From: an uncultured Methanosarcinales archaeon
Lineage (GTDB): Archaea; Nanobdellota; Nanobdellia; Woesearchaeales; GW2011-AR9
Direction: 5' to 3'
Assembly: GCA_964404595.1 (NCBI GenBank)
Contig: CAYOKQ010000001.1
Location: forward strand, 22,618-71,165
Length of the DNA stretch: 48,548 nt
Below are positions 26,676-43,293 of the stretch, piece after piece. The notes under the pieces are model-generated. The model was not told the origin of the DNA and did not search any database. It saw only the letters and a program-made list of their open reading frames with translations. A program made the position numbers and the translations under genes. Numbering within the stretch: position 1 is the first letter of the stretch; every line of letters starts with the position of its first letter.

Positions 26676-27575
26676 ATGAAAAGTTTATTGTTTAAGAATA
26701 AGGAGTACCTGCAACTTATTCAGAAAATTAAGAACGAAGTGAATTTGGTCCAGTTGAAAGCAGTTCTTTTAGTGAATAAAGAACTTCTGCGCTTATATTG
26801 GAATATTGGAAAAGCTATTGCTGAAAAACAGGAACAAAGCGAGTGGGGTGATTCGGTGGTTGAGGCAATTGCTCATGATTTACGTAAAGAATTCCCCCAG
26901 ATGAAAGGTTTTTCCAGGTCAAACTTGTTTAATATGCTCCAGTGGTATACTTTTTATGCTAAAAGGGGGGAGAAAGTCCAACAGCTTGTTGGACAATTAC
27001 CATGGGGCCATAATGTAGCTATTATTAATAAAATTAAAAAAACTGAAGAAGCGCTATTTTATGTCCAACAAAGCATAAAAAATAATTGGTCGAGAAATAC
27101 TTTAATTCATCAAATCGAACAAGAATTGTATCACCGGGTAGGCAAAATAACCCATAACTTTATAGAAACGTTGCCACCATCCCAATCAGACCTAGCACAG
27201 CAAACCCTTAAAGACCCTTACGTGTTTGATTTTCTTTGCCTGAGAGACAAAGCACAAGAGAAAGAAATAGAGAAAGAACTTACCAAACACATCACTAAAT
27301 TTTTGCTTGAATTGGGAGCTGGTTTTTCTTTTGTTGGTACACAATATCTTTTAGAAGTTTCTGGTAAAGATTTCTTCATTGATCTTCTATTTTATCACTT
27401 AAAATTACGCTGTTATGTAGTTATCGAATTAAAAACTGGAGAATTCAGGCCAGAATACGCTGGAAAAGTTAATTTTTATCTTTCAGCAATAGACAATCTC
27501 ATCAAAGGTAAGCATGATAACCCCTCAATAGGTATAATTTTATGTAAGAGTAAGGATAAAGTAATAGCAGAGTAA
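26676..27575 (+). CDS. DUF1016 (YhcG-like) PDDEXK nuclease-family protein, probably C-terminally truncated
   Basis: The N-terminus VNKELLRLYWNIGKAIAEKQEQSEWGDSVVEAIAHDLRKEFPQMKGFSRSNLFNMLQWY is typical of DUF1016. The nuclease core is IDLLFYHLKLRCYVVIELKTGEF. The protein stops right after ILCKSKDKVIAE, where family members normally continue. Confidence 0.75.
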   Translation: MKSLLFKNKEYLQLIQKIKNEVNLVQLKAVLLVNKELLRLYWNIGKAIAEKQEQSEWGDSVVEAIAHDLRKEFPQMKGFSRSNLFNMLQWYTFYAKRGEKVQQLVGQLPWGHNVAIINKIKKTEEALFYVQQSIKNNWSRNTLIHQIEQELYHRVGKITHNFIETLPPSQSDLAQQTLKDPYVFDFLCLRDKAQEKEIEKELTKHITKFLLELGAGFSFVGTQYLLEVSGKDFFIDLLFYHLKLRCYVVIELKTGEFRPEYAGKVNFYLSAIDNLIKGKHDNPSIGIILCKSKDKVIAE

Positions 27576-27607: not shown

Positions 27608-29815
27608 ATGACCATGATCCGCAACTTTACTCCCCGCCTGTACCAGCAAACTATCTTGGGAACCGCCGCTCAGAAAAATACATTGGTGGTGCTCCCAACC
27701 GGCATGGGAAAAAGCGCCGTTGCTTTTATGCTCGCTGCCCAGCGATTGCAAAATTATCCTTCCTTTAAAATTTTAATGCTAGCACCAACCAAACCATTGT
27801 GCGAGCAGCATGTGCAGACCTTTCAAAAACATCTGGACCTCCCCCCACAGAAAATAGTATTATTTACAGGCAGTGTGTCTCCTGAAAAAAGAGGGGAATT
27901 ATGGAAAAATACCACGGTGGTAGTATCAACCCCCCAAGGATTGGAAAACGATGTCATTAATTCGCGAGTTAGATTAGAAGAGGTTTGCTTGCTGATCTTT
28001 GACGAATGCCATCATGCAACTAAAGAATACAGTTATGTCTGGCTGGCTCAGCAATACGAAAAATTAGCCAAATACCCCCGCATACTGGCTTTAACAGCTT
28101 CCCCCGGTTCTGACATGGAAAACATTCAAGAGATATGCAAAAATCTCTTTATAGAGAAAGTGGAAGTACGAACGGAAGAGGATCCTGATGTCAAGCCCTA
28201 TGTACAAGAAGTAAAATTCAAATGGATTAAAGTAGAATTTCCGGCGCAGTTCAAACAGGTGCAAAAATTTCTGCAGGACTGCAAAAAAAGCAAACTGATG
28301 GAAGCACAGCATTATGGGTATTGCAATGATATAAACCTGAATAAAACGCAGTTGTTGGCGCTGCAAGGGGAATTACATCAAAAAATTTCACAAGGAGAGC
28401 GAGATTTTGAAATGATGCGCTCAATATCACTGCTGGCAGAGGCACTCAAAGTGGACCACGCCTTAGAATTATTAGAATCGCAAGGAATTACGCAGCTTCA
28501 TTCTTACCTTTCGAAATTACAGCAGGAAGCTTCCAGCACCAAAGTAAAAGCAGTCCAAAATTTGGTAATAGATGAAAATTTCAAGTCCGCAGCATATCTT
28601 ACCGGGGAATTGGTGCAACAAGGCATAACCCATCCAAAATTAATAAAATTAAAAGAGCTGGTGCAAGAAGAAACTTTACGTGATTCTTCTCGAAAAATAA
28701 TTATTTTTACCCAATATCGGAATTCAGGAGAAGAAATAGTCAAAGCGCTCAATCAGCTGCAAATCAGCAATAGCATTTTTGTAGGACAAGCAAAGAAAAA
28801 CGGCACCGGTTTCTCGCAGAAGCAGCAGAAGGAAATTTTGGAAAAATTCCGCCAGGGTGAATTTAATGTTCTTATTGCGACGTCCGTTGCGGAAGAAGGT
28901 CTGGATATTCCAAAAGTAGATAAAGTGATTTTCTATGAGCCGATACCCAGTGCTATTCGTTCTATCCAGCGTAGGGGAAGAACAGGAAGATTGGAAGAAG
29001 GGGAAGTGACGATGCTCATCACTGCCGGAACACGCGATGAAGGATATCGCTGGAGTTCCGTGCATAAAGAAAAGCGGATGCACCGGAATCTGGAAGCGCT
29101 TAAAAAAGGAATTTCTATAGTGGCATCACCAGAGCCAACTACCTTACGACAATTCATCCCAAAGGAACAGCTGGTAGCCGTTGTTGCCGATCATCGGGAA
29201 AAAGATAATCGGGTGGTCAAGGAACTTATTGAGATCGGCGTGAGCGTGAAAACAGCACAATTGTATTCTGCTGACTATGTGATATCGGGACGGGTGGGGG
29301 TAGAACTCAAAAAAGTACCTGATTTTGTAGCCTCAATTATCGATGGGCGGGTGCTCGAACAAGTGCGCGACCTGAAAAAAAATTTTGAAAAGGCAATCCT
29401 CATTATCGAAGGAGAGGAAAATATGTACGCGGTGCGCAATGTGCATGCCAACGCCATCCGGGGTATGCTCGCGTCGATTGTGCTTGACTTTGGCGTGCCC
29501 GTCTTGTATACTAAGAATCCAAAAGATACTGCAGGTTTATTGGCGGTAATGGCCAAACGTGAACAAGATAAAGAAAAAGATTTTTCTTTGCATATCAAAA
29601 AGCCCCATTCGATGAAAGAGCAGCAGGAATTTTTGATTTCGGCCTTGCCGGGAATAGGAATAATCGTGGCAAGGAATTTATTGAATTATTTTGGCACGAT
29701 AAAGAGCGTGGTGAATGCATCGAAAGAGGAATTACAGGCGCTTGATGGGGTGGGGGAAAAGATTTCGGAAAGGTTGTGGCAGTTGTTTAATGAAGGATAT
29801 GGGAAGGAAAAATAA
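27608..29815 (+). CDS. hef: Hef: helicase-associated endonuclease for fork-structured DNA (SF2 helicase + XPF/ERCC4 nuclease + HhH2)
   Basis: Helicase motifs present: PRLYQQ, LPTGMGKS, FDECHHA, TASPG, QRRGRTGR. The ERCC4 nuclease part has DYVISGRVGVELKKVPDF. The C-terminus LPGIGIIVARNLL...LDGVGEKISERL is HhH2. Confidence 0.92.
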   Translation: MTMIRNFTPRLYQQTILGTAAQKNTLVVLPTGMGKSAVAFMLAAQRLQNYPSFKILMLAPTKPLCEQHVQTFQKHLDLPPQKIVLFTGSVSPEKRGELWKNTTVVVSTPQGLENDVINSRVRLEEVCLLIFDECHHATKEYSYVWLAQQYEKLAKYPRILALTASPGSDMENIQEICKNLFIEKVEVRTEEDPDVKPYVQEVKFKWIKVEFPAQFKQVQKFLQDCKKSKLMEAQHYGYCNDINLNKTQLLALQGELHQKISQGERDFEMMRSISLLAEALKVDHALELLESQGITQLHSYLSKLQQEASSTKVKAVQNLVIDENFKSAAYLTGELVQQGITHPKLIKLKELVQEETLRDSSRKIIIFTQYRNSGEEIVKALNQLQISNSIFVGQAKKNGTGFSQKQQKEILEKFRQGEFNVLIATSVAEEGLDIPKVDKVIFYEPIPSAIRSIQRRGRTGRLEEGEVTMLITAGTRDEGYRWSSVHKEKRMHRNLEALKKGISIVASPEPTTLRQFIPKEQLVAVVADHREKDNRVVKELIEIGVSVKTAQLYSADYVISGRVGVELKKVPDFVASIIDGRVLEQVRDLKKNFEKAILIIEGEENMYAVRNVHANAIRGMLASIVLDFGVPVLYTKNPKDTAGLLAVMAKREQDKEKDFSLHIKKPHSMKEQQEFLISALPGIGIIVARNLLNYFGTIKSVVNASKEELQALDGVGEKISERLWQLFNEGYGKEK

Positions 29816-31089: not shown

Positions 31090-31099
31090 TTTAAAAATA
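31090..31099 (+). promoter_or_regulatory. TATA-like box (TTTAAAAATA) about 30 nt upstream of the RHH gene start
   Basis: Spacing fits an archaeal promoter giving a near-leaderless transcript of the 31126..38960 operon. Confidence 0.35.
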
Positions 31100-31125: not shown

Positions 31126-31263
31126 ATGAAGCGTAAAATTAGCGTAAGCTTTGAAGAAAGCACTATAGCGAAATTAGACGGTCTACTAGAAAATGGTGCT
31201 TTCCGTAATAAGAGCCATATTGTGGAATTTGCAGTGAAAAAACTATTGGAGGAGAGACAATGA
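31126..31263 (+). CDS. ribbon-helix-helix (CopG/Arc/MetJ-type) DNA-binding protein, 45 aa
   Basis: Not in the ORF track (<60 aa). It reads MKRKISVSFEESTIAKLDGLLENGAFRNKSHIVEFAVKKLLEERQ. This fits a beta-strand (KISVSFE) followed by helix-helix, with the typical (R/N)xSxxI pattern. Its stop overlaps the next start within ATGA at 31260..31263. Confidence 0.7.
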   Translation: MKRKISVSFEESTIAKLDGLLENGAFRNKSHIVEFAVKKLLEERQ

Positions 31264-34200
31264 GTCCGCTCGAAGCACAAGTTCAAAAGAGCAGCTCAAT
31301 TTCTCGTTTTGCGGAACGTTGTGTGAGAGAGGCCTATGATCCTCGCTATGTGCATGATATAATCTATGAAACTTATAGGGTTCTCCACAATAGTATTGAT
31401 GATGAACTAGTTAGCTTAGAAGAAAAAGAGCTTGCAAAGCAAGAAATCAGGGAAGAATATCAATGCCTATTAGAAGACTTGCCCTGCTTTGCAAATAATT
31501 CTCAACAGCCAAGAGAACTTCTTGCATATGAAGAAGGTATTGCTTTAGGTAATTGGAGCAGAGGAATCAATGAGGCCTATAAAAAATTAGCTGGTGAAGT
31601 TGTACAGGAAACTGGAATTGATCCACTCTATGATCCTCGCAGTGTTTTTGATAATATCGGGTTGTATATTCAAGATAAGCAGTTTCCATGGTTGGAAAGA
31701 ATTGTGAGTATACTTCGTACCTATGGATCCAAATTTCTTGATAATAATTTAATTGAGTTAGATGACGAAAGCAAAAAAGCAAGAGTAGAAGCTTGGCATA
31801 GCACGCTACCCCCAGAATTAGGACAACTCTGCTCGCAGGGTGATCTATCTGATGTTATGCATTTAGGTTCTAAAGCCATGGCTGATGCTTTTTTAACCTA
31901 CTTTAATCATCATTGTCTCTCTGGATCTTTAGGGGAATCTGCCGTTTCACCAGGAGTATTTACCTCTCCCGATGAATTTAGACATGTAACAGTAGATCAT
32001 TTTTATAGTTTTGTACGAATTTCACAAAAAGTACTCGCAAAATATCTATTAGCCAAAGCTCGTGAACAGGGAGTAAATACAGCTGATCATGATTTTTGGG
32101 AGTATACCATCTTAGAATTAGCAGAGAGCAAAAAACGGATGGATACGAATCCCACCATCAATCAAAAGATACGGCCAACATTAGATTTACTCCATAGTGA
32201 GATGGTGCATTATGTTCGGAACTTGGCTGAAATAGATTTAACTGTCCTACGTCGTGATGGCGACGTACAAGCTCCTTTTGTCTCGCAATTAGATTCGGTG
32301 TATGTGCTTAGGGCAGAGAAACACAATGGTTCGCGCGACCGAGCTATATTTGCTGATGAAATGGGAACTGGTAAAACATTATCAGCGATATTAGCTGATG
32401 CGCTTTATAGAAAAGAAGGGGCAGTAAAGAGAACGCTGGTTATCTGTCCCAATCAGATGAAAAAAGAATGGGAAGAACGTTTCACTAAATACCTTTCTGA
32501 CAAAATCATTCAAAAATGGTATAGCAGTGAGGGCACATCATCTATTGGTGTCATTAATGGGTCTAAGTCACTGAAAGACATTGAGCAACATGCTGTCGTA
32601 ATAGTTAATTATGAAATGGTGCATCGCTCACTCCAATATGTAGAAAATGAAGAAGGGGTTGTGCTCGAACTTGCAAGTCAGGCCTTATTCAACGGTGTTG
32701 AAGACGTCTTTAAAGAAAATGAAACGTTGGAAGCGATTTGTTCCAGTGCAATGGAATATCTCTTGGCTAGGACAACTTTAAGAGACGCACAAAGACAGTT
32801 TAATGATAAACAACAGATACTCGAATGGATAGGAGACGATGTACGTAAAGCTGCATTTGCGTTAGCTACAGAAATGTATTTGCGTGATGAAAAGCGCACA
32901 ACCGAAAGTCTTTTTAGTTATGGGGCTGATTTTTTGATTCTGGATGAAGCGCACGCCATTAAGAATCCTGATGCTAAAAGGACGAAAGGAATAAGCGAAC
33001 TTGTCGCTGAAACTGCGAGAGTAGCGTTACTCACTGGCACCTTAATCCCCAATCGCTATGACGACATCAGTATTCCATTGCAGCTGGTTGATAGCAGCTA
33101 CAAACCAGAAAAAATCACACTGGGAGAGGGGGGCACTACCTTAGCTCCAAAATTGCGGCGTATCCGACAGGCATTAATTCCATACTTAAGCCGCAATTTA
33201 CGAGAAGAAGTGTCACCACGCAGCTATTCTATAACTTCGGAGGTGGAACGAGATGAAGTGGTGGAAGCAGACGAAGTAATGTTAATGACGTATAGGGCGA
33301 TAATCGAAGATAATCAATTATCCTTTGCAGAAAAAACTCGCCTGACACGCTTAGCAACACTCCATCCCGCCCTTGCTATCAATAAACTCTGGCAAATGTC
33401 TGAACGTGAAGACAGTTGGATTGATGCAGATGCTATTATTGAACATATTATGGATTCCTTGTCTGGAGATGTGTGGAAAACCCTGACGGATGGTTCATAC
33501 GTGCCACCGAAATACAAAAAAATTGTTGCTGAAGCAGGAGAGCATCCACACAACGTCGTGGTATTTACGTCCCACATTGAGGGGAATACTCGACCGTTGG
33601 AAAAACCCATATTTCCCATAAAGACATTGATGGAGTATTTACAGGAAGCACTGCCTCATAAAAAAATTTTGCTTCACGATGGCAGGACTGACGATCACAA
33701 GAATCCAGAACAATCAGAACGAAAAATAATTTTAAGGGAATACGGCAGCAGAGATGATGTGGTTCTCGTCGCTTCCTATTCTACCTTAGGTGAGGGATCG
33801 GACCTGACACGAGGCACTAAAGTAATTGGTTTAGATTTACCTTACGCTATTCCAGAACAAGGCGTAGGAAGAATTGATAGAATAACTCAAACCAGGGACG
33901 TAACGGCAAAATATCTTACCATAAAAGATGCCAGACTGTCTGCGGGAACAAAGTCAGGACTTACTATTGATGAGGCTGTATTGCAGTTAGGGCGGGACAA
34001 GCAAACTGTTTCATCTATTCTGGTAGACGGTCGGCCTCCTGGAAAAGAAGAACTGGAAGCATACCAGAAATTATTGGAGCAGAATGGGGAAACTCCGTAC
34101 ACTTACACACCTTTGCGTGGAGGCTTAGAGCTTCATAATAAGGAGAAAGAACAAGCTGAACAATTGCGAATTTTTATCAATAGAACTGCCAGCAACAATC

Positions 34201-34991
34201 GTGGCAGTAGAAGAAATGTCAAAGATTTTGAAGAATACTTGCAGCGAACCTACATTGAAAAATCAGTCCTAGAACCAACCAGTTATACCTTCAAATCTAA
34301 TAGTATGTTAGCGCAATTAGTTGCTCCAATTGTAGAAAGTAAACGTCTCGCAGATGTTGGCGGAGGTCCAGCTTCTTTAGCATTAGCCGGGTTAAACAAT
34401 GCTTACGATATTATTGATCCAACTGCATGGAGACAAGTCTTAGAACAAATACTTCGGGAAAGGGGGACCAATTTCCCAGAAAATGCGCACTTCCATCAGC
34501 AATTCCTGGCTGATTTTGCAGCCCAAAATCCTAATGTTCTCTATGATATAATTACATGTAACAATATGTTACATTGGACCACGCCGCGTGCTCCTAATGG
34601 AAAATTCTCTGAGCGAGAACAAACCTTGCGAGAAATTAATGGACATCTTACCACTTCCGGAATTTTTGTCTTAGGGATGCCGGGAGAATATTCCCAATCA
34701 GCGCAGGCAAATTTAGAAACTATTTTACAGCATACTGGCTTTCATGAGTATACTCTTGACCAAGTGAGCTCGCCACAAGACAAAGGGTTCCAGGAGTTAG
34801 TGGTAGTTGCGAAGAAAACGGGAGAACCACGTGGTGAACCATTACATGGATCACAATTGATTTTCAAATATTCTACCGGAAGAGCTGTTAAACGATTACG
34901 TGGAGGAAAAGAGGAAAAAAAGCCAAAAGAAGGTGCGAAAGCAGATATTTTCCTCTTCGGCACCAAGAATATCCGTAAGGTGCTAGAATGA
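31260..34991 (+). CDS. SNF2-family ATPase fused to a C-terminal class I SAM-dependent methyltransferase, with an ~360-aa N-terminal region of unknown function
   Basis: Helicase motif I is ADEMGTGKT (aa 365-373), II is LILDEAHAIKN (aa 560-570), III is LLTGTLIPNR, V is ASYSTLGEGSDLT, and VI is QGVGRIDRITQTR (~aa 867). The methyltransferase motif I is LADVGGGPASLAL (~aa 1030), followed by YDIIDP, DIITCNNMLHW and GIFVLGMP. There is no (D/N)PP(Y/F/W) motif. Confidence 0.85.
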   Translation: MSPLEAQVQKSSSISRFAERCVREAYDPRYVHDIIYETYRVLHNSIDDELVSLEEKELAKQEIREEYQCLLEDLPCFANNSQQPRELLAYEEGIALGNWSRGINEAYKKLAGEVVQETGIDPLYDPRSVFDNIGLYIQDKQFPWLERIVSILRTYGSKFLDNNLIELDDESKKARVEAWHSTLPPELGQLCSQGDLSDVMHLGSKAMADAFLTYFNHHCLSGSLGESAVSPGVFTSPDEFRHVTVDHFYSFVRISQKVLAKYLLAKAREQGVNTADHDFWEYTILELAESKKRMDTNPTINQKIRPTLDLLHSEMVHYVRNLAEIDLTVLRRDGDVQAPFVSQLDSVYVLRAEKHNGSRDRAIFADEMGTGKTLSAILADALYRKEGAVKRTLVICPNQMKKEWEERFTKYLSDKIIQKWYSSEGTSSIGVINGSKSLKDIEQHAVVIVNYEMVHRSLQYVENEEGVVLELASQALFNGVEDVFKENETLEAICSSAMEYLLARTTLRDAQRQFNDKQQILEWIGDDVRKAAFALATEMYLRDEKRTTESLFSYGADFLILDEAHAIKNPDAKRTKGISELVAETARVALLTGTLIPNRYDDISIPLQLVDSSYKPEKITLGEGGTTLAPKLRRIRQALIPYLSRNLREEVSPRSYSITSEVERDEVVEADEVMLMTYRAIIEDNQLSFAEKTRLTRLATLHPALAINKLWQMSEREDSWIDADAIIEHIMDSLSGDVWKTLTDGSYVPPKYKKIVAEAGEHPHNVVVFTSHIEGNTRPLEKPIFPIKTLMEYLQEALPHKKILLHDGRTDDHKNPEQSERKIILREYGSRDDVVLVASYSTLGEGSDLTRGTKVIGLDLPYAIPEQGVGRIDRITQTRDVTAKYLTIKDARLSAGTKSGLTIDEAVLQLGRDKQTVSSILVDGRPPGKEELEAYQKLLEQNGETPYTYTPLRGGLELHNKEKEQAEQLRIFINRTASNNRGSRRNVKDFEEYLQRTYIEKSVLEPTSYTFKSNSMLAQLVAPIVESKRLADVGGGPASLALAGLNNAYDIIDPTAWRQVLEQILRERGTNFPENAHFHQQFLADFAAQNPNVLYDIITCNNMLHWTTPRAPNGKFSEREQTLREINGHLTTSGIFVLGMPGEYSQSAQANLETILQHTGFHEYTLDQVSSPQDKGFQELVVVAKKTGEPRGEPLHGSQLIFKYSTGRAVKRLRGGKEEKKPKEGAKADIFLFGTKNIRKVLE

Positions 34992-36412
34992 CTCTTGACA
35001 AAATCGTGCGCGGAATCGAATCGAGGTTAGCAGAACAATCAGCTATTCTTCATCTTGCCAATGCCTGGATGGACAGGACAAATGGCGTAGTGAGAGAAAG
35101 ATTTACAATAAGTGCACAGGAATACATTACTCAACTACAAAATGTACCGTTATGGCATGAAGTCAAAGAGGATATTCCCCTATATACTCACCTTATTGGC
35201 AGTACATATCTCACCGGTGTTTCACGCGAGGAAGCAGAAGTTACCCTATGCTTAAGGCATTTTCCTACTGCCATTCATGCTTTGTCTCACTTTCTAAAGC
35301 ATCCAGAATATTCTACCAACTCACAGTATCACACCTTTGGTTCGCCACTAACGCTGACACAGGTTTTACGAGATTATTCTACCACTCTCAGTGAGGAAGG
35401 TGGATTTAAACCTAGGGCTGGAGATTGTAATACCTTTTTTTTTGCACTAAAAAAGAGAAATTTTCGAGAGGACAGAATTGTACAGCTTCTTGGATTAACG
35501 AAAGAGTGGGATGAATATAGGCACTCGAAAGGAATTCCAAAGTATATCCGTAAAGCGGTGCATGCAACAGTAGAGACCTTCTTACAGAATCCTGATTATT
35601 GTAATGATGCACATAATAAATTTGGCAGTCCCAAGAAACTTTTATTTGTCTTAAGAAAGGCAGAGGTTGAAGGATGTACTGCAGCAGTACATGCCTTGCG
35701 CTATGGGTATACCTCAGAGGAATCATTGTTAGAAGCAGTTGATCTCAAGCGAGAATGGACAACATATCAACGTACTAAAGGTATTCCAAAAGGATATAGA
35801 GAGACGGCAGACCAAGTTCTGCGTCATTTTCTTGCAGATCCGGATTATAATGCCGATGGTAGAAAAAATACTGCTTCGCAAGATGATAAAAGTTTTGGAG
35901 CCCCTTTTTCTTTATTACGGGTGCTGTTAAACTACAGAATAGATAATAATGGTAGAGCCTCATGGCAAAAGTTTAAGGGCGATGCTGGCGATGTTGCTAA
36001 TTCCATGCGCAAGAAGAGGTTTACATCAGAAAAATTATTAGAATCAATTTGTCTCTCAGAAGCATGGTCAGTGTATCAGGCAGCTCGGGGAATACCGAAA
36101 CGGTACAGAGAGGCCGCTACAGAGGTTGTGACTCATTTTTTACAGTGTCCTCTCTACACCAGGGGTAAAGGAAAAGGAAATTATACTGGCCAACCCTGGA
36201 AATTGAGGTCCATCTTACGTGATTATCACCCTGATGCCCAAGATTTGAAAAGGAAGGGGCCCGCGTATATGGTTTGGGCTGCTGTAAGCACTGGTAAAAT
36301 TTCAGAGGAACAACTTCTGGATACAATAGGCTTAACAGAACCATGGCAGGACTATCAACACAGCACTGCGGCTGCTCCTTTCCTGTTTATGCCAGAGAGG
36401 TATCAACAATGA
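34988..36412 (+). CDS. repeat protein paralog 1 (474 aa): conserved ~103-aa head plus 4 repeat units; unknown family
   Basis: The start shares an ATGA with the upstream stop. The head MTLDKIVRGIESRLAEQSAILHLANAWMDRTNG is shared with the next two genes. Hand-parsed units are aa 104-199, 200-282, 283-385 and 386-474. Confidence 0.85.
   Translation: MTLDKIVRGIESRLAEQSAILHLANAWMDRTNGVVRERFTISAQEYITQLQNVPLWHEVKEDIPLYTHLIGSTYLTGVSREEAEVTLCLRHFPTAIHALSHFLKHPEYSTNSQYHTFGSPLTLTQVLRDYSTTLSEEGGFKPRAGDCNTFFFALKKRNFREDRIVQLLGLTKEWDEYRHSKGIPKYIRKAVHATVETFLQNPDYCNDAHNKFGSPKKLLFVLRKAEVEGCTAAVHALRYGYTSEESLLEAVDLKREWTTYQRTKGIPKGYRETADQVLRHFLADPDYNADGRKNTASQDDKSFGAPFSLLRVLLNYRIDNNGRASWQKFKGDAGDVANSMRKKRFTSEKLLESICLSEAWSVYQAARGIPKRYREAATEVVTHFLQCPLYTRGKGKGNYTGQPWKLRSILRDYHPDAQDLKRKGPAYMVWAAVSTGKISEEQLLDTIGLTEPWQDYQHSTAAAPFLFMPERYQQ
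35297..36409 (+). repeat. intragenic array of 4 protein-level repeat units (83-103 aa each) in paralog 1
   Basis: Recurring pattern: FL-x2-P-x-Y ... FG(S/A)P..L..VL..Y ... G(D)C/A ... (S/T)EE.(L)L(D/E).(V/I)(G/D)L.(E)W..YQ..(K/R)GIP...R ... FL. Confidence 0.75.
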
Positions 36413-37827
36413 GCATTGATACCTTAGTAAGAGGAGTGGAAAGAAAACTTTCGGTTCAGTCAGCACTCTTAGATTTAGGTAATGCCTGGATGGATAAAAC
36501 CGATGGCATAGTCATAGATGAGGTGCACATGGATGAGCAGGAGTATGCATCTGCTCTAAAAAGAATTCCATTATGGGGAAGAGTTAAAGACAACTTGCCT
36601 CTCTATTCTAAACTGTTACAAGGAAGAAAAATAAGAGATCCAGAGCACGGTCAAGAAGCACGTCTGCTGTTTTATTTTCCAAAGCTGCTATATGTGTTTG
36701 ATGATTTCTTAGATGATCCTATCTATTCTCCCGGAAAAATAGGCCAAATACCTTTATCGTTTCCCTTAACTTTCTCCATAGTCTTAAATGGGTATGTGGC
36801 CAGAGAAAGAAAAATTGTGTGGAAAAAAGGTGACTGTAAAACAGTATTTCGAACGATTGAAAGTGGTAATCTTAAAGAAGAAATGATTCTTGATAGTCTT
36901 GGATTAAAGGATCGTTGGGAGCAATATCAAAATAGCCGGAAGCTTCCGAATGATATTCGTGAGGAATTAGAGAGTGCTTTAGACCATTTTCTATCGCATC
37001 CTTTGTATAGTGATGGAAAAGGAGGAGAACGCGGTTCTTTGGGATCACCTTTTTCCTTGAGAACTGTTTTATTAGGTTATGTTCCGGGAAAAGGGCTTAG
37101 AAAACGAAGCGGTCAATGCCGTAAAGTTTATTTTCTTCTCCAAGCAGGTCATGCACAGGAAGAATTTGTTTTGGATTCAGTTGGCCTTAGGGAACAATGG
37201 GAAGCATACCAAAAAACAAAAGGATTGCCCGAGGACATCCGAGAAAGAACCAAGGCACTTCTGGAACGATTTTTAGATAATCCATTGTATAGCAGCGGCA
37301 AATCTAAACAAGGCACTCTTGGTTCACCGTTGCCTTTGAGAACAGTATTGCGTAATTTTACTTTAGAGGGTATGCTGGACCATAATAAAGGTGAGATGAA
37401 ATTGGTGTATCAAGCAATTGTCCGTAATGTAATCACAGAAAAATTTGTGCTTGACTCAGTTGGATTAAGTGAACAATGGGAAACATATCAAAAGACCCGG
37501 CAGTTTCCAGAAGAAATTGCCACACCTTTGCGGCAGACTTTGGAACATTTTCTACGTGCCCCCTTGTATAGTACAGGAAAAAGGCAGCAAGGAAAAAAAG
37601 GGCAACCTCTCCCATTGAAAATGGTACTGCATAGTTATCATAATCAATCAGGAGAAATGTCCACTGGCAAAGGAGATTGCCATACCATCTATCGGATGAT
37701 TTATAATGGACATTTTACGGAGGATTATATTCTGGATAGAGTAGCGCTTACGCAGCAATGGAAAGATTATCAACAAAGCACCGGGGCTAAACCATTTATA
37801 TTTCCTGCGAGGGGGTGTACTCGATGA
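36409..37827 (+). CDS. repeat protein paralog 2 (472 aa): head plus 4 repeat units; unknown family
   Basis: I prefer the ATG at 36409 (MSIDTLVRGVERKLSVQSALLDLGNAWMDKTDG) over the track start at 36343. It aligns with the N-termini of both paralogs and forms an ATGA overlap with the upstream stop. Units are 94, 94, 93 and 90 aa. Confidence 0.85.
   Translation: MSIDTLVRGVERKLSVQSALLDLGNAWMDKTDGIVIDEVHMDEQEYASALKRIPLWGRVKDNLPLYSKLLQGRKIRDPEHGQEARLLFYFPKLLYVFDDFLDDPIYSPGKIGQIPLSFPLTFSIVLNGYVARERKIVWKKGDCKTVFRTIESGNLKEEMILDSLGLKDRWEQYQNSRKLPNDIREELESALDHFLSHPLYSDGKGGERGSLGSPFSLRTVLLGYVPGKGLRKRSGQCRKVYFLLQAGHAQEEFVLDSVGLREQWEAYQKTKGLPEDIRERTKALLERFLDNPLYSSGKSKQGTLGSPLPLRTVLRNFTLEGMLDHNKGEMKLVYQAIVRNVITEKFVLDSVGLSEQWETYQKTRQFPEEIATPLRQTLEHFLRAPLYSTGKRQQGKKGQPLPLKMVLHSYHNQSGEMSTGKGDCHTIYRMIYNGHFTEDYILDRVALTQQWKDYQQSTGAKPFIFPARGCTR
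36712..37824 (+). repeat. intragenic array of 4 protein-level repeat units (90-94 aa) in paralog 2
   Basis: These are the best-conserved copies, e.g. SHPLYSDGKGGERGSLGSPFSLRTVLLGY...EEFVLDSVGLREQWEAYQKTKGLPEDIRERTKALLERFL versus DNPLYSSGKSKQGTLGSPLPLRTVLRNF...EKFVLDSVGLSEQWETYQKTRQFPEEIATPLRQTLEHFL. Confidence 0.8.
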
Positions 37828-38960
37828 CATTGGATACATTAGTACGTGGAGTAGAAGCAAGAATTTCTGAGCAGTCAGCTCTCCTGGAATTAGCGCAGGC
37901 TTGGATGGAGAAAACTTCTGGAAGAGTTACAAATGAAGTTACTTTTGATACACGAGATTACATTTCCCTGTTAACTTCTTTACCTTTATGGAATGAAGTA
38001 AGAACTGAATTATCTCTCTATGCCCCCATGCTCCGTCAGACATGCTTAAGAAAGAAAAATACCAGAGGAGAGAAAGCACGGATGTTAATTTATGCTCCCA
38101 CTTTAATTCATGTGATCAACCACGTCATCGAGCATGATTTTTATAGCGAAGGAGAATCAACAAGTCCTTTAAGCCATCCCTATGGATTACTTTCCATTTT
38201 ACGTAATTATGTTTCCGAAGGAGAAGGTAAAAGGGTTCGTTTTAAAGGGGAAGGGCGCAGTGTTTTGATGGAAATGGCAGGCGGTTACTTAGATCAGGAA
38301 ACAATCTTCCGAACCACCGGCCTACAAAACAGATGGGATGCATATCAAAGCCAAAGAAAAATTCCTCCGCAGGTGGCTCGTAAAATAAAAAATGTTTTAG
38401 AACATTTCTTGGAGCATAAGCATTATTCTGCCGGTAATGGAAAACAGGGTGCACTCGGCCAACCATTGCCACTGCGCTCAGTTTTGCACAATTACCAAGC
38501 TAAAGAAAATGGAAAAATGGTGCAGTCGAGAGGGGATTGTGCTCAAATATATACGGCATTGTTCCAAGAATTAATTACAGAGGATATGGTTTGGAAAGCG
38601 ACAGGTTTGGAAGAAGCGTGGAGTGAATACCAAAAAACAACAAAACTTCCACCAGAAATGGTTGACAAAATTAATGAAACTATGCGCACCTTTTTACGAA
38701 ATCCTTTGTATAGCCCGGGCTGTGCAGCCTATGGGCCAAAAGGTGTTCCTATCCCACTGAACTCTTTTTTTCGTAGCTACAGAGTTGGAGAAATGCGTAT
38801 CAGGAAAAATTGTGGCGATTTACGTGTGGTATGGGATGGATTAGTGCGAGAGAGAATCACTCCAGAGATGATTTGGCAAGCAGTTCCTTTAAAAGCAGAA
38901 TGGGAAGCGTATCGACAAAGTACTGCGGATAAGCCTTACCAGCTAGGAACAGAGTTATGA
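37824..38960 (+). CDS. repeat protein paralog 3 (378 aa): head plus 3 repeat units; unknown family
   Basis: The ATG at 37824 (MTLDTLVRGVEARISEQSALLELAQAWMEKTSG) forms an ATGA overlap with the upstream stop. The track start at 37815 is a GTG. Units are 94, 95 and 87 aa. Confidence 0.85.
   Translation: MTLDTLVRGVEARISEQSALLELAQAWMEKTSGRVTNEVTFDTRDYISLLTSLPLWNEVRTELSLYAPMLRQTCLRKKNTRGEKARMLIYAPTLIHVINHVIEHDFYSEGESTSPLSHPYGLLSILRNYVSEGEGKRVRFKGEGRSVLMEMAGGYLDQETIFRTTGLQNRWDAYQSQRKIPPQVARKIKNVLEHFLEHKHYSAGNGKQGALGQPLPLRSVLHNYQAKENGKMVQSRGDCAQIYTALFQELITEDMVWKATGLEEAWSEYQKTTKLPPEMVDKINETMRTFLRNPLYSPGCAAYGPKGVPIPLNSFFRSYRVGEMRIRKNCGDLRVVWDGLVRERITPEMIWQAVPLKAEWEAYRQSTADKPYQLGTEL
38130..38957 (+). 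repeat. intragenic array of 3 protein-level repeat units in paralog 3
   Basis: Same consensus as the other two arrays. The terminal unit ends with WEAYRQSTADKPY, parallel to WQDYQHSTAAAPF in paralog 1 and WKDYQQSTGAKPF in paralog 2. Confidence 0.75.
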
Positions 38961-39029: not shown

Positions 39030-39989
39030 ATGGCCCTTGAAGACAAATTCAAACAGCAAGCAGTCGTACTGGATCTATTGGAAGCAGCAGGAATAGCCGG
39101 CAAACAAAGAGCTACCTATGAAGCTACATTAACCACTCCTTTGACCATAAGATTATTTACCGCCGAAGCAGATTTAACTCCCGTAAAACAGAAATTGGCA
39201 GGTAAACGTGTAAAATTAACGGAGAGTCAAGAAAATATAGCAGTACTAGTAAGACATTTGCATGACTTTGAACAATCGGTGGGGGCTTGGTTAGCAACAC
39301 GGCCTACTCAACCATACGCTGTCGAATATGTGCTGGCTCATTATGACATCAAGAAAAAAGATTTTACTGATGCTGGCACTGCCACAGCATTGCTCAATAA
39401 AGTAGATTTCAATGGTCTTCAAACACTCCGTAGGCATAGCCGATTTGAGGGAGAATTAAGAAAACTCTATGGGTCTGTTTCCAATGGAACCGTTGATTAT
39501 ACCGCAAAAGCAGAGGATGTTTCCAAAAAAATTATTGGCAGAATTATGGTAGTTCCAAGCACAGCTTTGACTACTGCTTTCGCAGTCAATGAATGGAAAG
39601 CGTTCAAGGCTGGGAAAGGTAATACTTATCAGCCTATTCATGCTACAATTATTGAAACTGAAGGCTTTGAAACTGATTCAGCAGTGACCAGATCGCGCTA
39701 TTGCATGTTAGCAGCACCAGGACAAATTGATATAATGCCTAATCGGGGTCACACGCTTCTTAACATTGGAACGAGGAATACAGAAGTTCCATCTTGTGTA
39801 ATGGTGCGCGCAATAGTTATTGAAGGCAAAGCGATAGAAGGGCCCGGCAAGGTGAGTGAAGCTTTGTTTGATCAAAATTTAGTTGGACAGGTTCTGGGTG
39901 TAGATATTCCGGTGGAAGGATATACTGCTCCCAGTGGGTATGTTCCAGCAAGTGCTGCTTTTAGTACTGGAAAATATCGGATGCAATAA
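39030..39989 (+). CDS. hypothetical protein (319 aa), A/T/G/V-rich, with no TM segment or signal peptide
   Basis: Clean ORF at roughly 45-50% GC, like the operon upstream. The N-terminal half looks helical and the C-terminal half beta-rich. I recognise no motif. Confidence 0.6.
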   Translation: MALEDKFKQQAVVLDLLEAAGIAGKQRATYEATLTTPLTIRLFTAEADLTPVKQKLAGKRVKLTESQENIAVLVRHLHDFEQSVGAWLATRPTQPYAVEYVLAHYDIKKKDFTDAGTATALLNKVDFNGLQTLRRHSRFEGELRKLYGSVSNGTVDYTAKAEDVSKKIIGRIMVVPSTALTTAFAVNEWKAFKAGKGNTYQPIHATIIETEGFETDSAVTRSRYCMLAAPGQIDIMPNRGHTLLNIGTRNTEVPSCVMVRAIVIEGKAIEGPGKVSEALFDQNLVGQVLGVDIPVEGYTAPSGYVPASAAFSTGKYRMQ

Positions 39990-40005: not shown

Positions 40006-40965
40006 TTATTCAACAATCGAAGGTAGATAACTAATTTTATATTCTTTAAAGATTAATATATTTTCAAAGCTCTTGATTACTTCTGGGAATTTATCTCTCA
40101 ATTCAAATATTAAATTTCTGATATCTGTAGAACTTTCCACCTGTAAATCAATAAGGAGGTCATAATTACCAATTGTTGAAGTCAAATAATAAGTTTCTTT
40201 TTGTTGCAAGATATAACTCATAAATCTTTTTTTCGTTTTTTCGTCTATTGGCTGTAATTTAATCAATAAAAGATACCATTGTATCCCTAATTTGGATACA
40301 TCCAATTTCATTCTGAAACCATTAATAACTTCGCTTGTTTTGAGTTTCTTTAATCGATATCTAACTATGTCTATGGTCATTCCGTTTTTATTAGAAATTG
40401 TTGTTATTCTTTCTCGTGCATTTTGTCCTAATGCTTTCATCAAATGAATATCCTCATTGTCCAAGGTTATTCGTTGGAATTGTTCTGTTTGAACTCCTTC
40501 AAGATCGGCCTCTAAGAATCTATAACTTAATTTATGTGATCTTGTTAATATGGAAAAATTAGCCTCTCTTAAATATTCTGCGCAAATATTTTTTATTTTA
40601 AGGTATAAATCATCAAATTCTTTAAGGGTCTTAGCATAAACTAAAAGAATTATATTTGATTTACCGATTCCATTAATAATCCAGCCAATATTTTCTTCAT
40701 CAACAAATTTTTCAATTATCTCTTTTTCCGTTTTATTGGTTATTTTTTCTAATTCCAAAAAGATGTAATAGGAATTAAACCCCAATTTACTAAGGTTAAA
40801 TTCCGTATAAAAGCTTTTAATGAGTCCATTTTCCTGCATTTTCTTAATTCTGTAGCTAACTGCTTGTTTGCTTATCTTTAACTTCTTAGCAATATTTGAA
40901 TCTGGTTCCCGGCAATTCCTATTAAGAATTCTGAGAATCTCTTGATCTCTCTTGTTTAACCACAT
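40006..40965 (-). CDS. tandem (duplicated) Lrp/AsnC-family transcriptional regulator, paralog B
   Basis: Two HTH_AsnC-like units are present: ILRILNRNCREPDSNIAKKLKISKQAVSYRIKKMQENGLIKSF and LMKALGQNARERITTISNKNGMTIDIVRYRLKKLKTSEVINGF. Architecture and length match the gene at 17136..18098. GC is very low. Confidence 0.8.
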   Translation of the reverse strand: MWLNKRDQEILRILNRNCREPDSNIAKKLKISKQAVSYRIKKMQENGLIKSFYTEFNLSKLGFNSYYIFLELEKITNKTEKEIIEKFVDEENIGWIINGIGKSNIILLVYAKTLKEFDDLYLKIKNICAEYLREANFSILTRSHKLSYRFLEADLEGVQTEQFQRITLDNEDIHLMKALGQNARERITTISNKNGMTIDIVRYRLKKLKTSEVINGFRMKLDVSKLGIQWYLLLIKLQPIDEKTKKRFMSYILQQKETYYLTSTIGNYDLLIDLQVESSTDIRNLIFELRDKFPEVIKSFENILIFKEYKISYLPSIVE

Positions 40966-42749: not shown

Positions 42750-43085
42750 TTACTTGACTTTGCGAAAAACAAAAAAATACAAGAAAAAGAAACATACGAT
42801 CAATGAAATGATATACAAGAAGAATACCCGTACCACCGATATCTTATCGGCTATCTCGACACCATAGAAAAAAGCAAAATGACCGACGGTACCAATTAAG
42901 GCCCCAATGACACTGCGCACCACATCTGCACGGGTGATTTTGGTCAGAGGATGGCTACTGGTATCTTTTTTGATAGCTTTCTTGAGGCTCTCTAACTCTT
43001 GAAGTTCTTTCGTTTCTAAATCCTCTATTTTACGTTCTTCCTGAAGTATGAGTTTGGGGCGACTCTTTTTGGATTTTCTGGGCAT
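42750..43085 (-). CDS. hypothetical membrane protein (111 aa)
   Basis: Basic/acidic N-terminus followed by two TM helices. Confidence 0.5.
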   Translation of the reverse strand: MPRKSKKSRPKLILQEERKIEDLETKELQELESLKKAIKKDTSSHPLTKITRADVVRSVIGALIGTVGHFAFFYGVEIADKISVVRVFFLYIISLIVCFFFLYFFVFRKVK

Positions 43086-43293
43086 GGTACTGGAAAGAGA
43101 GTTAAGGAATATAAAGGTTACTGCTTATAGGAAAAGCGCCCGTAGAGTTATATAATTCTTTATACATATATTTATATACCTCTTTATTATCATTTCTTAT
43201 ATGGAAAAAATGGATGAGGGGACAGATCAAGTTCTTTTAGAGATTAAAGAGATTAGTAAACGAATCGATAAACAAATAGAAAGAAATAGAAGA

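Follow-up and report, generated by a model that had tools for sequence, protein, structure and literature searches.

The operon described here represents a rare gene module of Woesearchaeota, whose conserved unit consists of an SNF2 ATPase–methyltransferase fusion (SNF2-MTase), zero to three tandem-repeat proteins and a divergent AAG-like protein, predicted to be a DNA glycosylase (AAGL). With a probability of roughly 40%, this module is an ATP-driven, repeat-protein-targeted base-excision system serving defence or DNA surveillance. The initial annotation of the window (the whole stretch of 48,548 nucleotides that was analysed) had instead proposed a five-gene translocase/methyltransferase system headed by a ribbon-helix-helix (RHH) gene, devoid of an effector and ending at position 38960. 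The features of the operon, with its genes numbered g1 to g6, are listed in Table 1.

Table 1. Features of the operon and its surroundings, in positions of the window.
Feature	Coordinates	Strand	Basis or remark
TATA-like element TTTAAAAATA	31090..31099	+	read from sequence; 36 nt before g1 ATG
g1, 45-aa RHH-like protein	31126..31263	+	weak profile matches
g2 residues 1-350, conserved N-terminal domain, invariant LYDPR and HHCLSGSLG	31260..32309	+	8-sequence alignment
g2 residues 351-900, predicted SNF2-family ATPase (dsDNA translocase), large lobe 1 insertion	32310..33959	+	PF00176
g2 residues 1018-1190, predicted class I SAM MTase, motif I D[VIL]GGGPA, motif IV NNMLHW	34311..34829	+	Pfam, alignment
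g2 residues 1191-1243, basic C-terminal tail, pI 10.35	34830..34991	+	
g3, ~90-aa N-terminal domain, 4 repeats, YQHSTAAAPF tail, pI 9.0	34988..36412	+	
g4, N-terminal domain, 4 repeats, YQQSTGAKPF tail, pI 9.1	36409..37827	+	
g5, N-terminal domain, 3 repeats, YRQSTADKPY tail, pI 8.95	37824..38960	+	
TATA-like element TTTAAAAA	38999..39006	+	sequence; 31 nt upstream of g6 ATG
g6 residues 1-195, basic helical N-terminal domain, pI 9.3	39030..39614	+	model pLDDT about 90
g6 residues 196-290, predicted AAG/MPG-fold DNA glycosylase core	39615..39899	+	Pfam, Foldseek, hhalign
g6 residues 291-319, conserved C-terminal tail PSGY.P...FSTGKYRMQ, predicted disordered	39900..39989	+	invariant columns; pLDDT < 50
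Convergent regulator gene	40006..40965		ORF; g6 is the last gene before it

Operon Organisation and Conservation

All five consecutive plus-strand open reading frames reported between 31126 and 38960 were found, and ATGA overlaps link them at each of the four junctions (31260, 34988, 36409 and 37824), and g2, g4 and g5, which start internally, are each preceded by a GGAGG-like ribosome-binding site. This packing had been called the tightest in the window; no other run of overlaps occurs there, but two further isolated 4-nt overlaps lie at 8602-8605 and 16451-16454. Moreover, the arrangement is not a matter of chance, since the junction between the SNF2 gene and the repeat gene is an (A/G)TGA overlap in all related loci that carry a repeat gene. 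Several repeat-to-repeat junctions in these loci are likewise (A/G)TGA overlaps.

The unit extends beyond position 38960, as gene g6 (39030-39989) also belongs to it, and the AAGL gene comes last in the operon wherever the 3' end of a related locus is visible. In the window, the order is RHH, SNF2-MTase, three repeat genes and AAGL. Between SNF2-MTase and AAGL, locus L010 carries three repeat genes, L013 two, L003 and L014-L017 one, and L005 a single frameshifted one. In L006, the AAGL gene abuts the SNF2 gene directly and is the sole family partner of the SNF2-MTase, so that the repeat proteins are not obligatory. AAGL is the most constant partner of the SNF2-MTase.

The RHH gene had been regarded as a hallmark at the head of the operon. 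Its assignment to this family is plausible, though statistically weak (RHH_8 E=0.024, CdrS E=0.013, ParD antitoxin E=1.2). No counterpart precedes the SNF2 gene in any of the six loci in which the 5' end of that gene is visible (L001, L002, L003, L005, L006 and L010), and none was detected by a homolog search in L013-L017. Thus, g1 is a local, lineage-specific add-on outside the conserved module. The absence of RHH from the relatives and the closing position of g6 together delimit the conserved unit named above.

The TATA-like element reported ahead of g1, TTTAAAAATA, is present and represents a putative promoter of a near-leaderless transcript. The second element, TTTAAAAA, is a possible internal promoter for g6. 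Resembling elements occur at -27 in L003 and at -23 in L013, and the AAGL gene of L010 has a GGAGG ribosome-binding site in place of a TATA-like element.

The module is accessory and diversifying in Woesearchaeota. It occurs in about eight lineages, with all taxon-labelled records belonging to this group of DPANN archaea, and AAGL was found in 1 of 185,579 GTDB species representatives. Repeat proteins diverge fastest (31-54% identity), followed by AAGL (35-62%) and then by SNF2-MTase (41-76% identity to the window), and the loci are independent and divergent. The number of repeat genes per locus (0-3) and of repeats per protein (2-5) varies, with lineage-specific duplication and reshuffled order. 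The three catalytic centres (SNF2, MTase and AAGL) are under purifying selection; the SNF2 centre keeps Walker A, DEAH and motif VI across the family, and the MTase centre keeps motifs I, II and IV.

The locus has a native GC content and lies in ordinary core chromosome. Neither integrase or transposase genes nor other mobile-element genes were found around it, typical defence-island neighbours were absent beyond two PD-(D/E)XK genes, and no module family was found on viral contigs. The neighbouring DNA-repair genes encode Hef (27608-29815) and PD-(D/E)XK nucleases, and the C-terminus of an XPD-type helicase is encoded upstream in L010. Flank synteny is partial, with 5-formyl-THF cyclo-ligase common to L002/L013 and L003, which points to a locus long inherited vertically and not to a mobile one.

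Protein Components of the Module

The description of g2 (1243 aa) as an SNF2 ATPase that carries a class I SAM methyltransferase in its C-terminal part proved correct and is backed by family-wide invariant motifs. Its N-terminal domain has no sequence match in Pfam or PDB. The SNF2 domain (PF00176, E=1.9e-18, residues 355-610) is closest to SsoRad54, INO80, Rad5 and RapA. Its best PDB match is the SsoRad54-like 1z63 (E=4.9e-13), with motifs I, II/III and V/VI aligned, and among PHROGs it matches phrog_62 (E=1.7e-39). The GTGKT, DEAH and TGT motifs are invariant in the alignment of eight family sequences.

The methyltransferase gives sub-threshold matches to Methyltransf_12/23 (residues 1018-1150), with Methyltransf_23 matched in six of the eight family members (best E=1.7e-7), and its best PDB profile match is ToxA, a small-molecule N-methyltransferase (E=1.4e-3). 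Residues D48, GGGPA, D69, NN and W are invariant across the family. As had been observed, the (D/N)PP(Y/F/W) motif is lacking, motif IV has a different sequence and only these generic families are matched. Judged by its motifs, the enzyme is not a DNA amino-methyltransferase, and classical protective DNA methylation is therefore unsupported.

The repeat proteins g3, g4 and g5 are indeed paralogs, sharing 28-38% identity (E values as low as 1e-88). This family of basic proteins contains two to five copies of a unit of ~94 aa, and g5 falls into one orthologous class with L004_R1 and L010_R1. Searches of Pfam, NCBIfam, PADLOC and PHROGs with g3-g5 returned nothing. The AlphaFold2 model of g5 (pLDDT 92.5, pTM 0.80) has no match in PDB or BFVD (viral structures), and the modelled fold is an unrecognised one. 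The repeat profile finds only 30 matches among 1.84 billion (1.84e9) representative proteins. It had been asked whether homologs always accompany SNF2-MTase and RHH genes; SNF2-MTase adjoins them wherever the context is recoverable, but RHH does not. The tails of the repeat proteins and of AAGL are both conserved and probably disordered, with an S-T-[GA] core in common.

The claim that the operon has no effector-type partner is wrong because g6, directly downstream, is predicted to be a divergent AAG/MPG-fold DNA glycosylase that retains the catalytic Glu. Its core matches PF02245 (E=1.5e-5, 24.9 bits, under the cut-off of 27), a family also assigned to its homologs in precomputed annotation, and the top Foldseek matches are human AAG (3qi5_B, E=1.5e-4) and 7xfh_K. 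In the hhalign register, E211 corresponds to Glu125, F213 to Tyr127, R239 to Tyr162, N245 to Asn169 and R260 to Arg182. The equivalents of Glu125 and Asn169 are invariant in 12 of 12 AAGL sequences and that of Arg182 is present in 11; the ETE(A/G)(Y/F) catalytic motif and the GPGK motif are further likenesses. Unlike AAG/MPG, however, g6 has a core recognisable over about 95 residues only (hhalign probability 14%), an invariant Arg in place of the intercalating Tyr162, a deletion of the His136 region, a novel 195-aa basic N-terminal domain, a conserved C-terminal tail and an operon link to SNF2-MTase. Such high divergence of the core means that its activity could be altered or lost. The N-terminal domain possibly holds one repeat-like module, the hhalign match to the repeat profile (E=0.0046, probability 7.7%) being no better than that of the g2 control.

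Several parts of the module appear directed to DNA: the SNF2 domain by its relatives, and the repeat proteins and AAGL N-terminal domain by their basic character (pI about 9).

Comparison with Known Systems

The set was placed in no known system by PADLOC, Pfam, NCBIfam, PHROGs or a literature search. This agrees with the initial annotation; PADLOC gave only partial SNF2 matches and nothing for the repeat proteins, and the operon lacks the signature partners DUF1998, PLD, PglZ, BrxC, ZorA/B and DpdA. The best partial PADLOC and NCBIfam matches are DISARM (DrmD SNF2, DrmMI/MII MTase and DrmA/B/C), BREX, Zorya type II (ZorD) and Dpd (DpdE), conflict systems of several genes that likewise have an SNF2-like ATPase and often an MTase. 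However, scores fall far under the cut-offs (DrmD 37 bits vs 950) and reflect ATPase motifs only, and all of these systems lack an AAG-like glycosylase and such repeat proteins.

Type ISP and Type I restriction-modification systems (LlaGI, LlaBIII) resemble the module in combining a motor ATPase and an MTase in one polypeptide or complex, in their diversifying target-recognition modules, separate or appended, and in an attack on DNA coupled to translocation, which here is conjectural. In contrast, the present motor is a true SNF2 and not the helicase-like ATPase of Type I/ISP enzymes, the MTase is generic class I without the amino-methyltransferase motif, neither a PD-(D/E)XK or Mrr nuclease nor a TRD is present, and the candidate effector has the AAG fold.

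Base excision instead of phosphodiester cleavage, which may also operate here, is used against foreign DNA by R.PabI/HALFPIPE, Brig1 and Dag1/2. Precedents include an archaeal restriction glycosylase, R.PabI of Pyrococcus (PMC10273834, PMC5388411), and defence glycosylases (PMC11078745; 10.1101/2025.10.29.685425). Nevertheless, these have HALFPIPE or other glycosylase folds and not AAG/MPG, act as single proteins or simple restriction-modification pairs with a classical N6A MTase, and have neither motor nor repeat proteins. In the 2025 Dag preprint, AAG/MPG and SNF2 both go unmentioned.

Fusion of an SNF2 ATPase with a base-modifying enzyme in one chain is also seen in DNMT5 and JBP2, the latter carrying a dioxygenase. 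Both come from eukaryotes and are accompanied by neither a glycosylase nor repeat proteins; DNMT5 combines a C5-cytosine DNMT with RING domains, to which the MTase studied here is unrelated. DNMT5 uses ATP hydrolysis to gate its substrate specificity, and this gating does not depend on nucleosomes (10.1101/2020.01.05.895227).

Proposed Mechanism and Alternative Explanations

In the preferred reading, the module centres on a hub enzyme that joins three parts in one chain, namely its novel N-terminal domain, the SNF2-family ATPase, predicted to translocate dsDNA, and the class I SAM MTase. Zero to three basic repeat proteins are translationally coupled to this hub. The repeat proteins may bind DNA and set the target preference of the complex, and ATP hydrolysis by SNF2 would move or load it on duplex DNA. 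The third family, the AAG/MPG-fold subunit, which brings a basic N-terminal domain of its own and a conserved tail, would then flip and excise purine bases, and the resulting abasic sites would inactivate the target. The MTase might mark self, make a methylpurine substrate or regulate the complex, and g1 could be a small repressor added in front in this window alone. Overall, we infer complex formation, glycosylase activity and a defence role, amounting to restriction or surveillance by motor-driven base excision. This reading is favoured by the gene order and coupling kept across divergent loci, the intact catalytic centres, the AAG fold, the DNA-directed parts, the accessory and diversifying character of the module, and the glycosylase and DNMT5 precedents. 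Against it stand the generic MTase with its ToxA match, the divergence of the AAG-like core, the few defence-type neighbours, and the charge of the repeat proteins as the single property pointing to DNA binding.

AAG/MPG enzymes are canonical repair glycosylases, and the fold match of g6 to them makes a genome-maintenance complex conceivable, if rather unlikely. Here, SNF2 would clear or remodel DNA-bound proteins or track DNA during motor-assisted base-excision repair, AAGL would excise purines that are alkylated or deaminated, the repeat proteins would serve as DNA-binding scaffolds, and the MTase would modify a protein partner or detoxify a small molecule. The core-chromosome position beside repair genes, native GC, partial flank synteny, lack of mobile-element genes and absence from viral contigs favour such housekeeping; the chromosomal setting, the missing integrase and transposase and the vertical residence suggested by synteny also weigh against the preferred reading. 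On the other hand, a housekeeping system would not be expected to be so rare, a repair scaffold would not usually vary as strongly as the repeat proteins do in copy number, in the count of repeats and in sequence, the g6 core has diverged well beyond ordinary archaeal MPG enzymes, and repair glycosylases normally need no fused MTase or motor.

More doubtful still is an epigenetic or chromatin writer–eraser, in which the MTase marks DNA or repeat-protein tails, AAGL reads or erases the mark, SNF2 remodels and the repeat proteins form a lineage-specific DNA coat. It draws on the eukaryotic precedents DNMT5 and JBP2, on the S-T-[GA] tails and on the basic repeat proteins. DDM1/HELLS offers another SNF2/base-modifier precedent (PMC10538959). 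However, the repeat genes are translationally coupled to a preceding gene for a 1243-aa enzyme, which points to subunits in stoichiometric amounts instead of abundant chromatin proteins; L006 has no repeat gene, the mark itself is hypothetical, and a general chromatin role fits poorly with such rarity. As for the effector-less, RHH-headed five-gene system originally proposed, its genes, ATGA coupling and constant link of repeat proteins to SNF2-MTase are real, but the comparative data contradict it through the absence of RHH and the constancy of AAGL, and it is very improbable.

If the base-excision reading is true, this accessory module of Woesearchaeota, which could be assigned to no system described so far, would excise bases from selected DNA with the help of a motor.

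Extent and layout of the operon

The unit is longer than first described. The initial annotation had ended it at 38960, with no effector-type partner; the gene adjoining g5, named g6, encodes an AAG-like glycosylase (AAGL) and thereby a likely candidate effector, and a gene of this family is the last of the operon wherever the 3' end of a locus is visible. Within the part already described, ORF scan and sequence reading returned the same five plus-strand genes with ATGA at all four junctions, and the TATA-like element placed 5' of g1 is present in the sequence. Internal gene starts are preceded by GGAGG-like ribosome-binding sites. The claim that no other gene string in the window is packed so tightly also holds, since elsewhere there are two isolated 4-nt overlaps and no second run.

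Features of the operon and its surroundings in the window (SNF2-MTase, SNF2 ATPase with methyltransferase)
Feature	Position	Strand	Description	Basis
TATA-like element TTTAAAAATA	31090-31099			direct sequence reading
g1	31126-31263	+	45 aa, RHH-like	ORF scan, sequence reading
g2	31260-34991	+	1243 aa, SNF2-MTase	ORF scan, sequence reading
g2 N-terminal domain	31260-32309		residues 1-350	
g3	34988-36412	+	474 aa, repeat protein	ORF scan, sequence reading
g4	36409-37827	+	472 aa from internal ATG, repeat protein	ORF scan, sequence reading
g5	37824-38960	+	378 aa, repeat protein	ORF scan, sequence reading
TATA-like element TTTAAAAA	31 nt 5' of g6 ATG			sequence
g6	39030-39989		319 aa, AAGL; 70-nt gap after g5	
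AAGL tail	39900-39989			
4-nt overlap, isolated	8602-8605			
4-nt overlap, isolated	16451-16454			
Envelope gene, bacterial type	15042-15464			
Regulator	17136-18098	-	~320 aa, AsnC/Lrp-type HTH matches	
ORF	18223-19620		465 aa, no Pfam match	
Envelope gene, bacterial type	21912-22667			
Nuclease	24167-25009		Cas4/Dna2-like PD-(D/E)XK	
Envelope gene, bacterial type	25045-25956			
Nuclease	26676-27575		YhcG/DUF1016 PDDEXK	
Hef	27608-29815		helicase, ERCC4 and HhH domains	
Regulator	40006-40965	-	~320 aa, AsnC/Lrp-type HTH matches	
AT-rich kilobase	43001-44000		GC 0.285, around small unannotated ORFs	

Relatives' contigs were recovered from databases, and each neighbouring ORF was classified against the window proteins. 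A large-database search with g4 returned itself plus one other protein, that with g2 seven proteins that are 41-50% identical, among them one labelled Candidatus Woesearchaeota, and that with g6 eight clusters. Identity to the window falls in the order SNF2-MTase (41-76%), AAGL (35-62%) and repeat proteins (31-54%).

Gene order in the window and in related loci (SNF2-MT, g2 family; R, repeat protein; AAGL, g6 family)
Locus	Gene order
Window	RHH, SNF2-MT, R, R, R, AAGL
L010 (Woesearchaeota UBA10204)	SNF2-MT, R, R, R, AAGL
L013 (= L002)	SNF2-MT, R, R, AAGL
L003 (Woesearchaeota GCA_016185815.1)	SNF2-MT, R, AAGL
L014-L017	SNF2-MT, R, AAGL
L005	SNF2-MT, R (frameshifted), AAGL
L006	SNF2-MT, AAGL, unrelated ORF
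L004	SNF2-MT, R, R, R, contig end

The coupling of these genes recurs across lineages. Wherever a locus bears repeat proteins, its SNF2 gene overlaps the first repeat-protein gene by ATGA or GTGA, and the junctions between repeat-protein genes in L004 (two) and L010 are likewise ATGA. A short gap separates the repeat-protein and AAGL genes in every case. Elements resembling the TATA-like sequence of g6 are present in L003 and L013, while L010 carries a GGAGG site in its place and L006 has no gap; because of these differences, AAGL may be co-transcribed or separately transcribed, according to lineage. The apparent split between the SNF2 and methyltransferase parts in L010 was ruled out as genuine, as its breaks fall on assembly gaps (X residues). 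The AAGL gene of L006 is ATGA-coupled at its end to an unrelated ORF (5629-6123), truncated after 165+ aa where the contig stops, which may replace the repeat proteins in that locus.

The head of the operon is less constant. The RHH assignment of g1, a protein too short to reach significance, is plausible but weak, with all profile scores below their cut-offs (RHH_8 E=0.024, RHH_3 E=0.064, CdrS E=0.013, ParD E=1.2). No small RHH-like ORF lies 5' of the SNF2 gene in the six loci inspected (L001, L002, L003, L005, L006 and L010), and BLAST found no g1 homolog in L013-L017. This rules out the RHH protein as a conserved component, and with it the earlier view of an RHH gene as the hallmark operon head.

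The SNF2-methyltransferase protein

The reading of g2 as an SNF2 ATPase with a class I SAM methyltransferase is borne out. Its SNF2 domain matches PF00176 above the cut-off (E=1.9e-18) and contains motifs I, II, III, V and VI in two RecA lobes; Walker A (GTGKT), DEAH, TGT and QxxGRxDRxxQ are invariant across an alignment of eight g2-family sequences. Among solved structures the nearest is 1z63, an SsoRad54-like SNF2 enzyme of Sulfolobus (E=4.9e-13, all three motif blocks aligned), followed in the PDB by INO80, Rad5, ISWI, RapA and LSH. Residues 1-350 are strongly conserved, with LYDPR, HHCLSGSLG and many aromatic and charged residues invariant, and match nothing in Pfam or among PDB sequences. 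They form an unrecognised domain, which could be catalytic or serve as a platform for docking.

Residues 1018-1150 give class I methyltransferase matches that fall below the Pfam cut-off in the window protein; Methyltransf_23 is matched by six of the eight family members (best E=1.7e-7). Family-wide invariants comprise the motif I loop D[VIL]GGGPA, an acidic residue after beta-2 (IDP) and, as motif IV, NNMLHW after beta-4. As a single sequence, the domain gave nothing useful against PDB sequences; in the profile search of the PDB, the leading matches were ToxA, an N-methyltransferase of small molecules (E=1.4e-3), and MePCE (E=0.16). The earlier statement that this is not a DNA amino-methyltransferase (N6A/N4C) stands, because none of the eight members matches a DNA-methyltransferase family at E<=0.01, the best PDB matches are ToxA and MePCE, and motif IV is not (D/N/S)PP(Y/F/W).

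The AAG-like glycosylase

The match of g6 to Pur_DNA_glyco (PF02245) is weak (E=1.5e-5, 24.9 bits against a gathering cut-off of 27), and several homologs bear a precomputed match to the same family. A sequence-only search of PDB sequences with the g6 profile gave nothing useful. In an AlphaFold2 model built from 8 sequences (pLDDT 78), residues 1-195 (pI 9.3) form a confidently predicted, helical N-terminal domain, which precedes a core rich in beta-strands (pLDDT 61-86) and a C-terminal tail that is disordered in the model yet highly conserved. In Foldseek, the model has the AAG fold: the top two PDB matches are human AAG 3qi5_B (E=1.5e-4, probability 1.00) and 7xfh_K (E=5.9e-4), and structurally related FMT C-terminal domains come next.

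The residue register was taken from a profile alignment, of low hhalign probability (14%), between g6 and the human AAG core sequence, the latter checked against PDB chains. It places E211 at the catalytic Glu125, F213 at Tyr127, N245 at Asn169 and R260 at Arg182. Among 12 AAGL sequences, 35-62% identical overall, E211, R239 and N245 are invariant, R260 is kept in 11, and position 213 is always aromatic, so that the equivalents of Glu125, Asn169 and Arg182 are all found, within the limits of that alignment. Other features of AAG are missing: the invariant Arg239 stands in place of the intercalating Tyr162, and the segment that holds His136 is absent. Judged from these sequences and the model, g6 is a genuine, if very divergent, AAG-fold protein whose predicted catalytic acid is under purifying selection. 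Its N-terminal domain aligned to the repeat unit of g3-g5 in a consistent register in six of eight members, with scores no better than those of the g2 control.

The repeat proteins

The description of g3-g5 as three paralogs without a recognisable enzymatic motif is upheld: they share 28-38% identity, and none of Pfam, NCBIfam, PADLOC and PHROGs has a family that matches them. All three are basic (pI 8.95-9.07). An iterated HMM identified 103 repeats in 40 family sequences, with 2-5 per protein, in an architecture of a ~90-aa N-terminal domain, ~94-aa repeats and a conserved C-terminal tail, YQQST..(K/N)P(F/Y). The repeat consensus is W..YQ.T.G.P......(helix)..HFL..P.Y..G......G.P..L..VL..Y...(hairpin)...G........(helix)...TEE.LL...GL. 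The AlphaFold2 model of g5 is very confident (pLDDT 92.5, pTM 0.80, 19-sequence alignment), and in full length it has no neighbour among PDB structures (best E=1.3, TM<=0.15) or in BFVD (best E=1.7); the single-repeat sequence profile likewise found nothing among PDB sequences (best E 1.2). Neither the full-length model nor this profile thus resembles solved repeat proteins, and the known nucleic-acid-binding repeat folds are not matched.

The family is small. When 1.84 billion representative proteins were searched exhaustively with the repeat-protein profile, only 30 matched, and a metagenome scan with repeat-protein patterns yielded nothing confirmed. One orthologous class runs across loci (g5 and the repeat proteins L004_R1 and L010_R1) at differing operon positions, and the two repeat-protein genes of L013 look like a lineage-specific duplication. 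The distant members P0041 and P0043 retain the framework of repeats as well as the YQQST..NPF tail; their shared N-terminal domain (…QAKASVMIQTLLDFWESGHEEVPGLTREFV…) differs from that of the main family, which suggests a second subfamily. P0038, a 233-aa protein of the representative library, has the N-terminus of an NAD-dependent epimerase followed by one repeat and a YQ.S..NPY tail; either its assembly is chimeric or the repeat unit has here undergone a rare domain fusion. A match of P0028 to DUF4250, a family without assigned function, is uninformative, since it sums a short motif, LLS.IN..LRD, over five repeats that are nearly identical. Comparison of the SNF2-MTase with the repeat proteins revealed no homology.

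The tails of the repeat proteins (…W.dYQQST[AG].KPF) and of AAGL (…[FY]STG[KR][YH]R.Q) are both strongly conserved, probably disordered, and have an S-T-[GA] core in common. Both might bind the SNF2-MTase at one common docking site, or they might be what it methylates.

Distribution and genomic surroundings

All homologs whose source record names a taxon (L003 with its protein P0005, and L010 with P0015) are labelled Woesearchaeota. A pattern-limited scan for AAGL motifs in one genome for each of 185,579 GTDB species found a single contig, and distant members may be undercounted where a search was word-indexed or pattern-based. A phage or plasmid origin was ruled out, as no locus of the module was found in IMG/VR viral contigs and tblastn against 50,697 phage and 72,556 plasmid records gave no relative beyond a 54-aa motif. 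The window represents ordinary archaeal core chromosome, with aIF5B, Trm1, RtcA, MsrB, Hef, PurM and an aminoacyl-tRNA synthetase and with no integrase or transposase, and GC content is native; recent horizontal acquisition is without support from GC content or flanking genes. Flanks vary by locus, yet a 5-formyl-THF cyclo-ligase gene lies upstream in both L002/L013 and L003. Given this setting and its rarity, the module looks like a rare, vertically persisting accessory operon.

Several neighbours deserve mention. A run of repair and nuclease genes, ending in Hef, lies just upstream of the operon, and the C-terminus of an XPD-type helicase is the upstream neighbour in L010; a PIN/MazE toxin-antitoxin pair and a SAM synthetase occur near the module in L003. 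Of the two regulators in the window, one is just downstream of the operon within a markedly AT-rich kilobase (GC 0.276), and L010 has a similar 328-aa protein with duplicated AsnC-type HTH matches ~9 kb downstream of the module. Additionally, the archaeal context includes bacterial-type envelope genes, for a signal peptidase II (Peptidase_A8), a lytic transglycosylase SLT domain protein and a SpoIIM-like membrane protein. The target of SLT enzymes is peptidoglycan, which the archaeon itself should lack.

Comparison with known systems

A negative PADLOC result had been expected, and only partial SNF2-ATPase matches were obtained; in PADLOC and NCBIfam, the sole common element is a generic SNF2 ATPase, with scores far below family cut-offs. 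For DISARM, the DrmD models reach at most 37-39 bits against cut-offs of 610-950, and DUF1998, PLD and DrmA are not matched by the six operon proteins. For BREX, Zorya and Dpd, there are partial SNF2-motif matches to the BrxH, ZorD and DpdE models, and no partner family (PglZ, BrxC, PglX; ZorA/ZorB; DpdA/B/C) in the operon or its flanks. Membership in Type I/ISP restriction-modification (R-M) likewise failed. The module also differs from PabI/HALFPIPE restriction glycosylases, g6 having an AAG-like fold and the methyltransferase not being of DNA type, and from the polyvalent SNF2-MTase proteins of phages and plasmids: the phrog_62 match (E=1.7e-39) covers the SNF2 region, and beyond a 54-aa motif the phage and plasmid records hold no relative.

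The likenesses are of another kind. Type ISP enzymes are alike in logic, and DNMT5, like g2, is an SNF2 ATPase fused to a methyltransferase (10.1101/2020.01.05.895227). Among the papers searched, none describes a prokaryotic module of SNF2, methyltransferase and AAG/MPG. The components are known folds, except for the repeat proteins and two N-terminal domains, and the module is rated as lying outside every described system, in agreement with the initial proposal of an undescribed one. What stands of that proposal is a candidate novel SNF2-MTase/repeat-protein system; the RHH gene as hallmark and the omission of the AAG-like gene do not.

Proposed function

The module is a conserved, translationally coupled operon of three families, with intact ATPase, SAM-binding and glycosylase motifs, basic repeat proteins of variable number, and a rare occurrence. 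Its most likely function, at a probability of roughly 40%, would be defence or surveillance by base excision. Its proteins would form a complex on duplex DNA, in which the repeat proteins recognise the target, the SNF2 motor uses ATP for loading or translocation, and abasic sites are left where AAGL has cut out purines. The accessory distribution and the diversification of the repeat proteins point in this direction, as does the logic of motor, methyltransferase and effector common to Type I/ISP R-M, DISARM and BREX. Moreover, glycosylase-based restriction and defence have precedents (PMC10273834, PMC5388411, PMC11078745, 10.1101/2025.10.29.685425). The methyltransferase, not being of a DNA-modifying type, is the weakest link of the defence or surveillance reading; it might serve unconventional self-marking, supply AAGL with a methylpurine substrate, or have a partner protein as its target.

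A motor-assisted alkylation-repair complex is the foremost of the other readings, though an unlikely one. An epigenetic or chromatin-type writer/eraser system, for which DNMT5 offers a fused counterpart of g2, is distinctly less probable. Slightly less probable again is a nuclease-free DNA-targeting machine that methylates and then excises: the non-canonical methyltransferase on its SNF2 motor would install ring-nitrogen methylpurines (such as m7G, m3A or m1A) on chosen DNA, the dedicated AAG-fold glycosylase, of a family that specialises in lesions of this kind, would remove them, destroying or marking the target, and the repeat proteins, with their novel fold, would act as modular, diversifiable DNA-recognition subunits. 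If true, it would be the first enzymatic DNA ring-nitrogen methylation coupled to excision and would bring a new class of DNA-recognition repeat. The five-gene system as first written, headed by RHH and lacking the glycosylase, is now very improbable.

That an AAG-type enzyme is paired with a fused SNF2-MTase bears on the motor gating of base-modifying and base-excising enzymes, for which DNMT5 provides a comparison, and on whether enzymatic methylpurine marks exist in DNA. The repeat proteins, whose repeat and gene numbers differ between lineages, would, if they read DNA, be candidates for a new modular recognition scaffold. DPANN archaea have small genomes, and ~9 kb is a substantial investment for one of them, which argues for a real selective benefit. 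The immune repertoire of this group is poorly known; if the module serves defence or surveillance, it would represent a new immunity architecture, combining an SNF2 motor, a non-DNA-type methyltransferase, an AAG-fold base-excision effector and a new tandem-repeat family.
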